Source: an uncultured virus (IMG/VR IMGVR_UViG_3300030060_003999) (Duplodnaviria; Heunggongvirae; Uroviricota; Caudoviricetes). From it: DNA of 64,000 nt. The position numbers were made by a program, and so were the translations under genes. Of the stretch, positions 56,957 through 62,500 are shown piece by piece (the first letter of the stretch is position 1; each line of letters begins with the position of its first letter). Below the pieces are notes generated by a model. The model did no database searches. It was not told the origin of the DNA and saw only the letters and a program-made list of their open reading frames with translations. The stretch lies in the IMG/VR virus record IMGVR_UViG_3300030060_003999, positions 1 through 64,000 of that record; one strand, given 5' to 3'.

Positions 56957-57606
56957 TTTAATCCTTTTCCTGTTAATTCGTTATAATAAAAAGTTTCTCA
57001 AAATTTGGGCTGGAATTTTTTTGCCACTTGCGTTCTCATTTAAATTTATTCATTTGTATTCCCAGAATAAAAAGTATATCATTTAATGTTAATAGGCTGT
57101 TTGATTGTTATTAATATATTCATTTTAAAAGATACTTCAGTAATGTCCTAACATATGCCGAGTAGTTGTATCACTTAATGGGTAGAAGTCATAGCATATA
57201 ATATGACCGCAAACAACCTTAAGCGAAAGTAATTAATGCTTTAAAATAACGAATTAAATGCTTTTTGTTTTAAAATTAACAAATTAATGGTTATTCGTTT
57301 AAACGAGGGAAATAAAAAAATTTGAAACAAAGCCATATGGTTGTATATAATCTATTGAGATGAATTGCAATATATATAGATTTATTTCATTGAATAGAAT
57401 TATATGCGCTATTTGAATAGATTTCTATAGAACGCATCACGCAACTGTTAAATGTTATGTTCCGAGCCATGTATCCCTAAATAATCCATTTAGCCTCTAT
57501 AATAACACATATATAGTCTATATATACTATACTACTACCATATGGTTTGGCTTTGCCAGTATAAACGAAAACCCCCCTTAAGGGGGCGACGCAGGGTAAT
57601 TCAGCA

Positions 57607-58113
57607 TCATTCTTCTTCTTGACCTCCTTCAGCAGATTTAACCGCAGGTGGGGTCATTGTCGGGATTTCACCGTTCATAGAACCATCCCAACGACCTTCT
57701 TTGTAGCCCTTTACAAGCGCATTATACGCTTGCTTAGAGTAATGCGTGGCCAAAGCCTCAACATCAGCGTAAGCACCACCAGTTCTACCATGAGGCAAAA
57801 CAGTAGCCAAAACGACTTCGGAGTTAGTAATACCCGCAAAGGCAGTATAAACCGCATTCTTCACAGAAAGAGCATTTTGCTCCACTTCGTCGGGTAGAGC
57901 CGATTCTCGGCCACGACGGGCTTTTGGGAAGTCATCATAGATGCTCCCAATTGAACGAATAGCAGTCCAATAGGTTGAACGCATATCGTCGTCTTTCGTA
58001 TTATTTCCAAGCATAATAGACAATTCAATAGCCTTGCCATTATCCCCTCTTTCTTCTCGCTCAAGCCATAGACTGACTTCAGTTGTGTTTTTTATCCAAT
58101 TCTTCTCATTCAT
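57607..58113 (-). CDS. early protein, paralog family A (copy 1)
   Basis: RSTYWTAIRSIGS..FPKARRGRES..PHGRTGG is shared with 59128-59667; start MNEKNW after GGAGGT. Confidence 0.8.
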   Translation of the reverse strand: MNEKNWIKNTTEVSLWLEREERGDNGKAIELSIMLGNNTKDDDMRSTYWTAIRSIGSIYDDFPKARRGRESALPDEVEQNALSVKNAVYTAFAGITNSEVVLATVLPHGRTGGAYADVEALATHYSKQAYNALVKGYKEGRWDGSMNGEIPTMTPPAVKSAEGGQEEE

Positions 58114-58256
58114 AATAATTACCTCCAATAAAGGAATTACGCTTCAATACCCTGCGAAGCACTAATACGGACGATGAGCCGTATAAGGTTGTAATTAAAC
58201 AAGCGCAAAGCGATTACAACCATATGGTAATACTTTGGTTATTGCCCCGAAGGGTC

Positions 58257-58577
58257 TTAACTCCACTCTTGCGGTTCATATCCGCCAGTATCACGGTTAT
58301 AATGCATCATAATGAGCCGAACAGGTGCAAAACTCATTCTCTTTCGCCATGTTAGCAAGAAAGATGTCAATGCAGGAGTTAATCCAGTAATGTAAAGTTT
58401 TACCACATTAACCAATTCCATTCTACTAATAAACTCCCTTGAAGTAGTTTCAAGAGCCTCAAAGTCCAAAGGATTTTCAATAGGTTCATCAAAGATATAA
58501 GCATCAATAATTTCACCATTACTGTTCTTAAGTTCGTGTCGTCCAGCGCAAAGTCCTACTTCAAGTGTTGTTAGCAT
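58257..58577 (-). CDS. leaderless early protein with a small alpha/beta fold
   Basis: Start MLTTLEVGLCAGRH about 27 nt downstream of a CCTTATG box; LYITGLTPAL...MHYNRDTGGY. Confidence 0.7.
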   Translation of the reverse strand: MLTTLEVGLCAGRHELKNSNGEIIDAYIFDEPIENPLDFEALETTSREFISRMELVNVVKLYITGLTPALTSFLLTWRKRMSFAPVRLIMMHYNRDTGGYEPQEWS

Positions 58578-58724
58578 AATAGGCGTTAAATGAGTTGTAT
58601 TACATAAGGTTATCCAAAGAACAACCATATGGTGTGGCTTTGGCTTAACCCGAAGGAAAGCCTTTTTAATTCATGCTTAGGAATGAGCACTTTTACATCA
58701 GCAGATGCTCAGGATGGCAGTTTT

Positions 58725-59015
58725 TCATTGAATAAGAACCCAGCCCCCATTCCACTCTTTACCGTTCAAAAACCATAGGAAATTCTTTTGATGAACGGAA
58801 ACATTAGGCAAACCGTTTAAGCGTTCCTTTGTTGTCGTTGTTTGCCATCCACCGTCGCTTATGTATAAAGCACCATCAACCGCATATTCAGCAATCATAT
58901 TACCATGTAGGTATAAACCACATGAATTATGAAATACCTTAACTTCTGTATTTCCTCGCTTAAAGGTTTGTCTGTTTCTAAAGGCTCTTATTGCGTCTTC
59001 TGTAATCTTTCGCAT
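58725..59015 (-). CDS. leaderless conserved-looking viral protein
   Basis: LYLHGNMIA...DGGWQTTTTKERLN pattern familiar from marine phage proteins. Confidence 0.7.
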   Translation of the reverse strand: MRKITEDAIRAFRNRQTFKRGNTEVKVFHNSCGLYLHGNMIAEYAVDGALYISDGGWQTTTTKERLNGLPNVSVHQKNFLWFLNGKEWNGGWVLIQ

Positions 59016-59127
59016 GATAACCGCATAAATCAGTATTATATGTCAGGGTAGACCAAAGCACTACCATATGGTTTGACTTTGTGTAAACCCCCCGAAAGGG
59101 GCGACAAGGGGCGAATTCCTTGCCGAA

Positions 59128-59667
59128 TCACTCTTCTTCCTGCACCTCCGCAGAATCCTCGCTCTTTGAAGGGCGAGGCGTGATTTGTAGCATACCTTCC
59201 GAATCAAGGTCAAATTCCCCTTCATCAGTCAATGCGATACGACCATCTTTCAATGATTGCATAATGTAGTTATGTGCTTGTTTCTTGTAGTTGGCAATCA
59301 TTTCATCCACTGATGAATAAACTCCACCAGTTCGCCCGTGAGGGACAATTACGGATAGAAGGATTGCGTGGTATTCAGTAGGGATTGAAGCATAGGCATC
59401 CGCTACCTTTTGTTCCACAGTCGCCAATACAATCTCTTGTGCGTCTGTAAGTGTTGATTCTCTCCCACGACGAGCCTTCGGAAAATTAGCCATAGTAGAG
59501 CCAATAGACCTAATTGCTGTCCAATAAGTGCTTCTTAGTTCATCAGTCGTTGCATTATCACCCAATGTTAGGGATAATAGAACGGCTTGTAGATTATCCG
59601 ATTCGGGTTGGCTTTCAGCCCATGCACGAACCTTGCTTGTGTTCATATTCCAATTCTTAATTTTCAT
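59128..59667 (-). CDS. early protein, paralog family A (copy 2)
   Basis: Shares motifs with 57607-58113; start MKIKNW after GGAGGT. Confidence 0.8.
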   Translation of the reverse strand: MKIKNWNMNTSKVRAWAESQPESDNLQAVLLSLTLGDNATTDELRSTYWTAIRSIGSTMANFPKARRGRESTLTDAQEIVLATVEQKVADAYASIPTEYHAILLSVIVPHGRTGGVYSSVDEMIANYKKQAHNYIMQSLKDGRIALTDEGEFDLDSEGMLQITPRPSKSEDSAEVQEEE

Positions 59668-59818
59668 GTTTTTTACCTCCAGTTTGGTGTTCTTCAAGTC
59701 TTTCGCCCCTTGAAGCACTATTGACGATTATAGGTAGTATAAGGTCTTAATTACAAAGTAATACAACCATATGGTTTGCTTTGTCTTACCCAATGGGTTT
59801 TACCCCAAAGGAGAAGAA

Positions 59819-60094
59819 TCACGCCCATTCTTCTTGAAATACCTCCATAAGTGGACTGGTTGCGTCAAAGAGAGCATCTATGAGTTTATCCTTAAGTGCG
59901 CTCATAACTTCAATATCAACCACATTCTTGAATTCTTCAGCAATCAACTCAAATACGAACAAATGGAACATACCTTCCTCATCACGCATTTCAAAGGACA
60001 TATCACGGATAATAGCCTTTTCAAAACCTTCCCTCATGAAATTGTCCATTCCGTCGCTGATTGTTGTTAATGCTTGCACACACTTCTTACACAT
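59819..60094 (-). CDS. leaderless acidic early protein
   Basis: ATG about 22 nt downstream of an ACCCTATA box; N-terminal CKKC. Confidence 0.65.
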   Translation of the reverse strand: MCKKCVQALTTISDGMDNFMREGFEKAIIRDMSFEMRDEEGMFHLFVFELIAEEFKNVVDIEVMSALKDKLIDALFDATSPLMEVFQEEWA

Positions 60095-60184
60095 GATATA
60101 CGGCTAAATGAGGAATATAGGGTTTGATTCCCCAAAGATTCACCAAACCATATGGTGTTGCTTTGCTATAAACCCGTAAAGGGG

Positions 60185-60558
60185 GCACAGGGAAGTATCT
60201 ATATTGTAATTGAGATTTTTATACATATGTGCCGTTTTACAGCCTCTATCATCGCTTTCACATCGCTTAAGGGCATAAATGGAGTAAAGGGTGGGATAGT
60301 GGAATGACTACCACTAAGTATGATGCGATTAGGTCGCACTCATGTAGGACGCTTATATTTATCATATGAGCCATACTGCCTTGTTTATGAAGATGGTTGG
60401 AGCCATCCGCCTTTTGAGCCTTAATCACTTTCATAGAGCCAAAACCGCACCCATACGGGCATAAGCGTTGGATATGTCGCACCACACGAAAACAAGCACA
60501 TTACCCCCGTCCAAGAGGGTATTCTGTCAATCCCTGTCGGCTCATGACTTCCGACATA
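60185..60558 (-). ncRNA. putative structured non-coding RNA (~375 nt) filling a whole cassette
   Basis: Has the cassette promoter box and 3' hairpin but no credible ORF; several local and nested long-range helices (see findings). Confidence 0.55.
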
Positions 60559-60660
60559 TACACGGCTATTAAGCCGTATAGGGTTTTCGTCCTCAAAGTT
60601 CACTACAACCATATGGTTATGCTTTGCACTAACCCTGCCCCTTACGGGGACTTACGGGTT

Positions 60661-60909
60661 TTAATCGTCTAAACCTCTCTCTTTCCACTCTTGATACTTT
60701 TGGTCTTCATAATCAGCCTTAACCTGTTCATGGTCTACAAAGCCCATTTGGTCAACAATAGAATAAACAACATCATAAAGAATGAGTGCGTCAGCATTCA
60801 GTAGTTCCCAAAACAAATCCATAATATCGTCTTGACTCAATTTATCTTGAATCAAAGAACTTACATCATCATATCCTGCCCAGTTTAGCATTGTTTCTAT
60901 ATCTGCCAT
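60661..60909 (-). CDS. acidic early protein
   Basis: ORF track; TAATG coupling to the upstream ORF. Confidence 0.7.
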   Translation of the reverse strand: MADIETMLNWAGYDDVSSLIQDKLSQDDIMDLFWELLNADALILYDVVYSIVDQMGFVDHEQVKADYEDQKYQEWKERGLDD

Positions 60910-61037
60910 TATTCTTCACTCTCCAATTCCGATAACCAATCATCAACCACTTGAGCCACATAATCGGGCATATCTGCGCTATTGTAGGTTTCACCATTTT
61001 CTAAAGTGATTTCAATACTCCATGCGATAACTTTCAT
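60909..61037 (-). CDS. small acidic protein (42 aa, not in ORF track)
   Basis: MKVIAWSIEITLENGETY...WLSELESEE; GGAGGGG RBS; overlaps both neighbours by 1 nt. Confidence 0.65.
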   Translation of the reverse strand: MKVIAWSIEITLENGETYNSADMPDYVAQVVDDWLSELESEE

Positions 61038-61756
61038 CAATTACCCCTCCTTGCTTCTCTAACTTGCTTAATAATGTCGGGAGTGCATTCCGAGCGTGAT
61101 TCAGTCTTAGCGTCAAAATGACAGTCAATAGCAACATCTTCAACATCATAGCCAAACTTTTTGAGTTTAAGTCGGCCTTCAACAAGTTTTTGGATTTTAC
61201 CCATGTCATTTAGAACGGTTTGAACCATAGCATCTTCAATAGCCTCTTTTCGCTGAACATTCGCTTGTTCCCAAACAACTCGGAAACGAAGAACCATTCC
61301 GTTGTAATCGTTTTCAAGATAGACAAACATCTTAGCACCATTATCATAAGTAATGTGATTCAATCCCCAAGTATTGAAGTTTTTAACTTCTCCATCAAGG
61401 TCAAATCCGAAAGTAAGCATTGTTCCTTCGGGTTCAGCCCACTTTTGCGTATTAACGGTAGTTTTGATTTGATTATAGTGAGCATCTTTGTGAAGGTTGT
61501 AAAGACCATCAGTAATGATTTTTGCATCAAATTCATAATCAACAGTAAATTGCACTTGTTCATTGATAACAATTCCATAAACGGTTGTATTATCTTCAAC
61601 ATGGATATAGCCATAATTATCGGTATCAACAGACCCATAGGTGTCAATTGTATAAACACCCTTTTCAGCCAACGCACCATTTAGTTTGTTAAAATCTTGT
61701 TCATTCAGTTTATTTCCGTAGTTAATTTTCATTGTTCTTACATATTGTATAGACAT
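61037..61756 (-). CDS. hypothetical early protein
   Basis: 239-aa ORF with GAGGT RBS and an ACCTTATA box upstream. Confidence 0.7.
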   Translation of the reverse strand: MSIQYVRTMKINYGNKLNEQDFNKLNGALAEKGVYTIDTYGSVDTDNYGYIHVEDNTTVYGIVINEQVQFTVDYEFDAKIITDGLYNLHKDAHYNQIKTTVNTQKWAEPEGTMLTFGFDLDGEVKNFNTWGLNHITYDNGAKMFVYLENDYNGMVLRFRVVWEQANVQRKEAIEDAMVQTVLNDMGKIQKLVEGRLKLKKFGYDVEDVAIDCHFDAKTESRSECTPDIIKQVREARRGN

Positions 61757-61829
61757 ATTATTACCTCAACATAGGGCTGATTAGAGCGTATAAGGTCTTA
61801 GATGTGCAAAGCAATCACAACCATATGGG

Positions 61830-62500
61830 CTTGAATATATCGTAAAGCGTAGGTTTAGCGTAATTCAAAGTATATCTTTTCCTATTAACAGGGATAATAA
61901 TTCACCCTCCCGATTACCAGTAACTCCATTGGGTCATTCCCAATTGGGCTTATATTAATTCGTATTCATATACTTATACTAATATAGTATTATATTAAAG
62001 TAATTTAGGTTTCTCATCGTCTTGAGCAAGTGAGAAAACAAAGTCAAGCAAGAATCTTAGGGGTTATGTAGACATAAGTATATATTATTTTTACTTTTAT
62101 CAATATTCTCATTTCTCATTCATTCATTCATTCTTCTACTACTACTTAACCGTCCAATAATCCTTTACTTATGCTATCATTTTCTTATGGGTTATGTATC
62201 TTAGAGGGAGAGAGGCTTATGAGAATCGTGAGAAATGAGAAAAGTGAGAAACCTCGCAAACAAATGGAAGTTTCTAAACAGTTATGCTACATAGACTAGT
62301 AGATTCTTAGTTTATCGTATCTTGAGAATCTTCTCAAGGATGATAATTCATATGAAAAAATCCCACTTTCAACGGCCTGATGCTAAACTGTAAATCATTT
62401 CAATTAATCTTAACAGGGCGAAATGCAAATCAATTAATTAAAATAGAATCGTTTGAAAAGCCCCTGACCTCTTTCGTAGAGATAAGAAAAAAGTTGTAAA
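61830..62500. other. non-coding divergent region with TGAGAA repeats; candidate replication origin or genome end
   Basis: No credible ORF; transcription diverges here; clustered TGAGAA/TTCTCA copies. Confidence 0.45.

Follow-up and report, generated by a model that had tools for sequence, protein, structure and literature searches.

A putative stand-alone gene for an enlarged, divergent manA-type RNA in a group-B-like magrovirus

We analyzed a 64,000-nt stretch of DNA (the window) from a virus record that is 96,885 bp long, is rated complete and carries its genes mostly on the minus strand. We concluded that positions 60289–60557 on the minus strand probably (roughly 60%) form a stand-alone gene for an RNA of about 270 nt, an enlarged and divergent relative of the manA motif (Rfam RF01745), in a virus that resembles the group B magroviruses. 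That probability covers the RNA together with the mechanism that we propose for it. Transcription would start about 23 nt downstream of the TATA box of the gene's cassette and would end at a T-run right after the 3′ tail of the RNA, and a transcript with such a start and end would therefore act free in trans, not as a switch in a 5′ UTR. Its predicted fold comprises the manA core and three lengthened arms. By analogy with the canonical manA RNAs described in a recent preprint, two of its loops (L5 and L7) would link copies of the RNA into closed oligomers, and a conserved CAAAA mini-hairpin would be a candidate for an extra contact or a binding site.

The assignment to manA came from an E-value scan of positions 60100–60700 against Rfam. 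The manA model aligned end to end (model positions 1–192 of 192) with 60556–60288 on the minus strand, at 53.3 bits and E = 7.8e-13, and no other Rfam family fell below E 1 on this segment. The same match was recovered in a 9.5-kb search (E = 1.2e-11). The default scan, in which the window was searched at gathering scores, reported tRNA alone; it missed manA because the score of the window is 1.9 bits under the gathering score of 55.2 bits. That is, the Rfam scan proposed in an initial annotation of this DNA found nothing but tRNA in its default listing, and found manA once E-values were used. In total, manA was matched in 4 of the 12 family members scanned. Three relatives matched manA alone, at 52.4, 48.3 and 47.4 bits, all under the cut-off, and the Rfam scan gave no manA match for eight others (L001, L003, L007, L008, L079, L081, L086 and L092).

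The core of manA was kept: the P1 hairpin, the GGGAU/AUCCC closing helix, the multi-arm junction with its conserved junction sequences, and the 3′ UCCCACC tail. The periphery was enlarged. Insertions of 38, 32 and 34 nt were found in arms P6, P7 and P8, versus 8, 6 and 11 nt in the model, and each of these three arms was about 25–30 nt longer than the Rfam consensus. Among the inserted elements are the conserved CAAAA mini-hairpin and a further hairpin whose loop reads CCYAA. When RNAalifold was run on 34 relatives without the manA model, its helices coincided with those of the model at 60530–34/60293–97, 60525–27/60498–500, the P3 hairpin, 60490–96/60380–86, 60486–89/60477–80, 60372–77/60317–22 and 60311–15/60298–302. 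The initial annotation had considered the RNA novel, a claim that gives way to the end-to-end alignment and to the agreement of the independently derived helices. We read the RNA as a divergent, enlarged relative of manA, which by the Rfam cut-off is not a member of the family; it is not a new class but an enlarged relative of a catalogued one.

A covariance model built from the 34 relatives (R1) found a single copy in the whole genome and also detected the divergent member L081. It did not match the canonical manA of Synechococcus phage S-CREM1, either with default filters or with filters off. This reciprocal test is weak because R1 also models flanking sequence and about 100 nt of inserted sequence, and the homology therefore rests on the one-way match together with the shared architecture. 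In the literature we found no report of manA in magroviruses or archaeal viruses (PMC10160649 included), and the supplements to Weinberg et al. (2010) and to the preprint may list such cases.

Relatives of the RNA were collected by pattern searches. The first of them, the viral contig L001, was found with a peptide pattern, and the match turned out to consist of nucleotide blocks with a broken frame. A search of viral contigs with a conserved 19-mer returned six loci, all of them true relatives, and a search of metagenomes with an 18-mer returned 54 loci, 44 carrying the RNA and 10 being chance matches. A second DNA pattern search returned only a contig that was already known, and eight of the nine matches in a scan of a genome collection were chance occurrences of the 18-mer. 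The alignment used below (A2) holds 34 distinct sequences from marine viral and metagenome contigs; 12 identical rows and 5 truncated rows were left out.

RNAalifold predicted 69 pairs in 15 helices on A2. Results showed that 99.6% of the 2344 cells were paired, versus 81.2% in shuffled alignments and 38–45% in slid controls. Changes on both sides of a pair were seen in 38 pairs and 392 cells, a level reached by none of 500 shuffles. Because the sequences in A2 are related, the shuffle control overstates the significance; the slid control is free of this problem. G-U pairs were frequent in the helices, which places the RNA on the minus strand. From this homolog search with covariation analysis, which the initial annotation had suggested, we concluded that the fold is held by selection. 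The comparison of folding energy with shuffles, suggested in the same place, gave a result no better than shuffles: the minus strand of 60185–60570 had a z-score of 0.00 and its plus strand +0.44, and 60289–60557 had −1.03. Judged by the first refuting condition of the initial annotation, its proposal would be lost. Folding energy is uninformative here, and the comparative evidence overrules it.

The relatives also separated the helices that the initial annotation had drawn from the window sequence. All five of its local hairpins correspond to helices kept in relatives (60535–60556, 60450–60459, 60391–60408, 60323–60339 and 60298–60315). Its three long-range pairings are complementary as written in the sequence of the window, but they are not kept in relatives. 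For the pairing of 60461–60468 with 60349–60356, 43.9% of cells were paired among the 34 relatives, with 0 compensatory changes, which is no better than the slid controls. The other two draw their 3′ partners (60187–60193 and 60227–60238) from beyond the point at which contigs from RNA libraries stop (60289/60290); their 5′ partners are already taken by helices with covariation support, and a change in one of these 5′ partners in L004/L006 was left uncompensated. The multi-domain picture was built on these pairings and is not kept with them, and in place of the proposed length of about 375 nt the conserved RNA domain measures about 270 nt.

The RNA begins at its 5′ end with the P1 hairpin (60535–60556, minus), which has a 6-bp stem and was recognized from relatives and from the Rfam alignment. 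P1 was misaligned by MAFFT and was therefore counted by hairpin prediction in each relative: a hairpin directly 5′ of the GGGA motif was predicted in all 34, and the stem sequences differ. The closing helix follows, with GGGAU at 60530–60534 (minus) as its 5′ strand and AUCCC at 60293–60297 (minus) as its 3′ strand; the latter corresponds to the symbols ]]]]] in the Rfam consensus and is followed by the conserved ACC(C/U) tail. This helix was paired in 34/34 rows, and its last pair was U-A in 23 and A-U in 11.

Arm P7 contains a conserved 18-mer (60409–60426, minus) that comprises an asymmetric internal loop and the mini-hairpin GCU-CAAAA-GGC. Its invariance in A2 merely reflects its use as a search pattern. 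An independent scan that used a different block returned 21 loci, 11 of them members, and in these the 18-mer was exact in nine, had one change in one and was altered in L081, where the mini-hairpin reads CCU-CAAAA-GGG, a compensatory change. In the hairpin at 60323–60339, the third base of the CCYAA loop (60331) co-varies with a single base that lies 5′ of the hairpin (60343), as G-C in 28 rows and A-U in 6, and the two likely form a tertiary pair. A wider scan for co-varying column pairs was too permissive to use, and 254/266 alone was followed up.

Loop L5 (UGGUG, 60480–60484, minus; A2 columns 101–105) and loop L7 (CUCCA, 60398–60402, minus; columns 193–189), the latter in a lengthened arm, can form 5 bp with each other. 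Over the 34 sequences 97% of the cells were paired, and the middle pair changed three ways (GC 13, AU 10, UA 10, other 1). The window has one U-U mismatch, as have L027, L028 and L052. The loops of the Rfam consensus are complementary too, with GUGGUG at the L5 site and uaACCA at the L7 site. We also considered a P3–L7 loop kiss and dropped it, as on inspection it suits some groups and fails in L016, L052 and L059.

The covariation of the L5–L7 contact fits an intramolecular pseudoknot and an intermolecular kiss equally well. If it is an internal pseudoknot, it would lock the tertiary fold of a monomer that binds a protein or a small molecule and builds no cages. The lengthened arms, which differ from the RNAs solved by cryo-EM, would be in keeping with such a monomer, as would the conserved asymmetric loop, which resembles a binding site. 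However, Ren et al. (10.64898/2026.07.01.735769) report that manA RNAs assemble into decamers and into a 60-mer cage whose pentamers are held together by L5–L7′ kissing loops, and that the loops they call L5 and L7 pair between molecules in the solved RNAs. By helix order, our two loops would correspond to theirs. We therefore consider an isolated monomer unlikely and retain the reading in which copies of the RNA associate. Of the roles that the initial annotation had offered for the RNA (decoy, anti-defence RNA, scaffold or ribozyme), only that of a scaffold or self-assembling RNA draws outside support, from the same 2026 cryo-EM preprint.

The RNA lies in a run of small cassettes at approximately 57,300–61,830. 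The head of its own cassette contains a 12-bp palindrome with the core CCATATGG (60607–60618), framed by CAAAG ... CTTTG. The CCATATGG pattern occurs 18 times in the window versus 1.15 expected, and 17 of these occurrences fall within 57331–61829. Nine cassette heads were listed between 57330 and 61830, with a common layout of a G+C hairpin, CAAAG-N-CCATATGG-N-CTTTG and a TATA-like box. In three cassettes an ATG is found 23–25 nt past the box, which suggests that these produce leaderless messages. At the head of the RNA the box was located by inspection at 60576–60583 (minus; tata = 60580–60577), 23 nt ahead of where the RNA begins and one base off the promoter box given in the initial annotation (60577–60584). 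The neighbouring cassettes with an ATG at 60094 and at 59015 have the same box 25 nt before the ATG, and the distance from the TATA-type box to P1 was 23–27 nt in the window and its relatives. We infer that this box is an archaeal-type promoter.

Of 51 rows (the window and 50 loci), 47 have the palindrome at a distance of 187–206 nt upstream of the 18-mer, and the remaining four rows end before the position of the palindrome, with their upstream part cut off. The next gene (60094–59819, minus) has a palindrome and TATA cassette of its own. Directly ahead of its palindrome stands a small G+C hairpin with UUU (60170–60186, minus), which is the 3′ hairpin that had been ascribed to the RNA unit; a hairpin of this kind precedes every cassette head. 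As had also been stated, the RNA is richer in G+C than its surroundings (0.47 for 60289–60558, versus 0.344 for the window and 0.375–0.42 for the flanks). The ORF at 59819–60094 had no relative among viral contigs, and blastn of 59700–60720 against cultured phages gave no match. Two cassettes downstream of the RNA, a 96-aa ORF (58725–59015, minus) matched the Pfam family Kyano_Gp96 (E = 4e-21). This family is named after T4-like cyanophages and is, besides manA, a second element common to the virus and the cyanomyoviruses.

Directly after the RNA lies a T-run (60286–60288, minus; 3–5 T in relatives), a probable termination site. A word-index search gave 23 RNA runs that hold small shares of a 2-kb stretch, and four of these were compared; X1 and X3 belong to one study and X6 to another, making two studies in all. 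The RNA is present in RNA libraries, as assembled contigs from RNA runs only, which cover 60290–60515 (X1), 60289–60391 and 60408–60493 (X3), and 60289–60540 (X6). The contigs of these three runs stop at 60289/60290, and that of X6 has adapter letters directly beyond 60289. We take this stop as a weak hint of the 3′ end because assembled contigs cannot show true ends, strand or level. Contig depths were 1019, 118–590 and 11 on the RNA versus 2–37 on the ORF at 59128–59718, values that cannot rank genes. Contig cover was absent at 59770–60238 and 60574–60640, with no contig bridging the RNA and the next gene, and the uncovered part is no finding. Run X2 gave a contig on the neighbouring ORF alone. 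Another contig of X1, 198 nt long, matched only the block of the conserved 18-mer (60402–60433) and had flanks like those of the L005 type; it represents the other main variant, and thus both variants occur in one RNA library.

Beyond the T-run follows a tail of about 95 nt (60191–60285, minus; alignment A3). It was nearly invariant in the eight closest relatives, with indels of 1 and 2 nt, and its ATG at 60276 reads AAG in L028, L034 and L039. Within the tail, tataaaaa forms a TATA-like run, and GGCUGUAAAACGGC resembles the GCU-CAAAA-GGC mini-hairpin. Relatives of the other main branch (L001 3115–3395; also L003 and L008) have about 275 nt of further non-coding DNA between the manA part and the next palindrome. 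This extra stretch has a conserved block, a 13-bp hairpin and no Rfam match, and it may be a second RNA domain.

The conserved tail could belong to a longer primary transcript. Such a unit would measure about 375–400 nt (60557 to about 60170), with the manA domain at its 5′ end and the tail as a second domain, and the 270-nt form would be a product of processing or assembly. The tail is conserved as strongly as the RNA in the eight closest relatives, a hairpin with UUU is available at 60170–60186, and in other relatives the manA part is followed by a longer non-coding stretch that is conserved, all of which a longer unit would accommodate. Against it, however, the contigs of three RNA runs from two studies end where the manA domain ends, one of them in adapter. 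In addition, the fold of the tail was no better than shuffles (z = −0.11), no covariation could be drawn on for the tail, and the pairings between tail and core were unsupported. A longer unit is thus quite unlikely in our estimation, and we keep to a gene that ends at the T-run.

The same T-run could be viewed differently. Weinberg et al. (2010, PMC2864571) rated manA as a likely cis-regulator and a possible riboswitch in 5′ UTRs. For the present RNA, a cis-acting riboswitch or attenuator would mean that a ligand decides between a stop at the T-run and read-through into the tail and the next gene, with the T-run after the closing strand as a possible expression platform and the conserved tail downstream of it. 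However, the next gene is headed by a palindrome and a TATA box of its own cassette, and no dependent gene is conserved. The units downstream of the RNA differ among relatives (for example in L001), and the tail holds a single small ORF, whose ATG is lost in three of the eight closest relatives and which is frameshifted in others. The manA RNA of S-CREM1, moreover, sits between tRNAs. We regard cis-regulation as very unlikely. Because the RNA has its own head in 47 of 51 rows and ends in a T-run, because the next gene also has its own head, and because the downstream units differ and the S-CREM1 RNA has the setting just named, we read the gene as standing alone, and we favour a free-standing RNA that would associate with itself over a riboswitch.

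A protein-coding gene was likewise considered, either as an 18-codon and a 72-aa frame across one TAA, in which case the gene might be broken, or as a 63-aa frame. The 18-codon frame had been described correctly in the initial annotation to within one base (ATG at 60557–60555, not 60558; it ends in TAA). It shares its reading frame with the 72-aa frame, with a single TAA between them, and a tblastn match of 59% over 32 residues, the one that brought in L001, could be read in favour of coding. That match, however, arises because the 18-mer block is conserved as nucleotide sequence, and the frame of L001 is broken there by a stop and a frame shift. Only 2 of 34 relatives had the 72-aa frame (60267–60485) open and in register, and the same count was obtained for the portion of the 63-aa frame (60421–60612) that lies inside the alignment; these were the two frames whose codon-level conservation the initial annotation had set against its own proposal. 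The start ATG was found in 3 of 34 relatives, length differences were not multiples of 3 in 14 of 34, Pfam gave no match for the short frames, and changes compensated within base pairs and were not synonymous. None of the reading frames is conserved and we exclude coding, a reading to which we give practically no weight; together with the covariation, this supports the original proposal of a structured, non-coding viral RNA in a cassette of its own.

The gene content of the virus points to the magroviruses. The portal protein was nearest to those of haloarchaeal tailed viruses (27–29% identity). Pfam matches included XPF (ERCC4 + HhH), two ATP-dependent ligases (one in the structural module), a Cpn60-family chaperonin, a class II ribonucleotide reductase, a split PolB, an RFC-like ATPase, ThiF and JAB, and the tRNA genes were those for tRNA-Leu and tRNA-Arg. 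The two PolB ORFs (L065 7251–8879 and 9694–10596) lie about 800 bp apart. A split PolB has been described for group B1 magroviruses (Philosof et al. 2017, PMC5434244). For groups B/B1, that paper gives a halovirus-like structural module, two ATP-dependent ligases, a chaperonin, a ribonucleotide reductase, a split PolB, a clamp loader, tRNA-Leu and tRNA-Arg, and a genome of about 95 kb. Judged by this gene set, the virus appears to be a group-B-like magrovirus. In the same paper, the hosts of magroviruses are inferred to be marine group II archaea, which is unproven, and the archaeal host that we attribute to the virus is taken from this literature.

One relative of the RNA was found on a 14.7-kb contig that had been binned into a 3-Mb flavobacterial MAG (Altibacter sp.). 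The contig is collinear with 56,983–71,401 of the virus at 76–89% identity, and the same MAG holds a second magrovirus-like contig (L097 = G002:C18, L098 = G002:C29). These contigs are probably mis-binned. They are the sole host-related observation in our analysis and might still be a clue to the host. A further carrier contig (L003/L020) has 184,733 bp, about twice the size of complete relatives (94–97 kb), and may be a concatemer or a larger virus.

The motif has been an orphan "riboswitch candidate" since 2010, and the 2026 preprint describes RNA cages in vitro without a biological context. A promoter of its own, an apparently discrete 3′ end beside the fold and the presence of the RNA in ocean RNA libraries argue that manA-type RNAs may act as free particles. 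The three-way covariation of L5 and L7 would be evolutionary evidence for natural selection on the contact seen in vitro. Our results would also extend the manA family to viruses attributed to archaea, and the Rfam manA model misses most of this magrovirus branch. One may go further and suppose that magroviruses build a particle or cage of RNA only, based on pentamers of the enlarged manA, inside infected archaeal cells, and that the longer arms and the CAAAA mini-hairpin give it a new geometry or a surface that binds cargo or protein. We offer this as a speculation, and an unlikely one; if true, it would amount to an RNA compartment or decoy that is encoded by a virus and has passed across the divide between bacterial and archaeal viruses.

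Several large, ornate orphan non-coding RNAs, among them ROOL, GOLLD and OLE, are often phage-borne and are reported to form RNA-only multimers. These families are unrelated to manA and much longer, and Rfam scans of the region gave no ROOL, GOLLD or OLE match. With canonical manA, the magrovirus RNA has in common P1, the GGGA/UCCC closing helix, the UGAC-GAAUA junction, the P3 hairpin followed by GGGGUAA-GUG, a GUGGUG-type L5 loop, the P8 and P9 arms, the UCCCACC 3′ tail, complementary L5/L7 loops and a marine viral setting. Unlike canonical manA, it scores below the gathering cut-off, and its subfamily is mostly invisible to the Rfam model. Unlike manA as first described, it occupies a stand-alone cassette instead of a 5′ UTR and has no conserved downstream ORF. 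Its carrier is a magrovirus, whereas known manA is carried by T4-like cyanophages and gamma-proteobacteria. The manA RNAs solved by cryo-EM (10.64898/2026.07.01.735769) are of the same family, and their L5–L7′ kiss would, by the mapping adopted here, be the co-varying loop pair; they are shorter than 200 nt, whereas the RNA described here has about 270 nt and, as predicted from its sequence, longer peripheral arms. A parallel in setting was found in Synechococcus phage S-CREM1 (OP535465; PMC9964418). Its manA (96.6 bits, 215 nt) is likewise phage-borne and, instead of preceding a protein gene, is flanked by tRNA-Leu and tRNA-Asn; one of these neighbours is separated from it by 1 nt and the other overlaps it by 1 nt. 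This manA is therefore probably released as a free RNA. The two would thus differ in the route of release, which would be tRNA processing in S-CREM1, and in the magrovirus a promoter of its own and a T-run.
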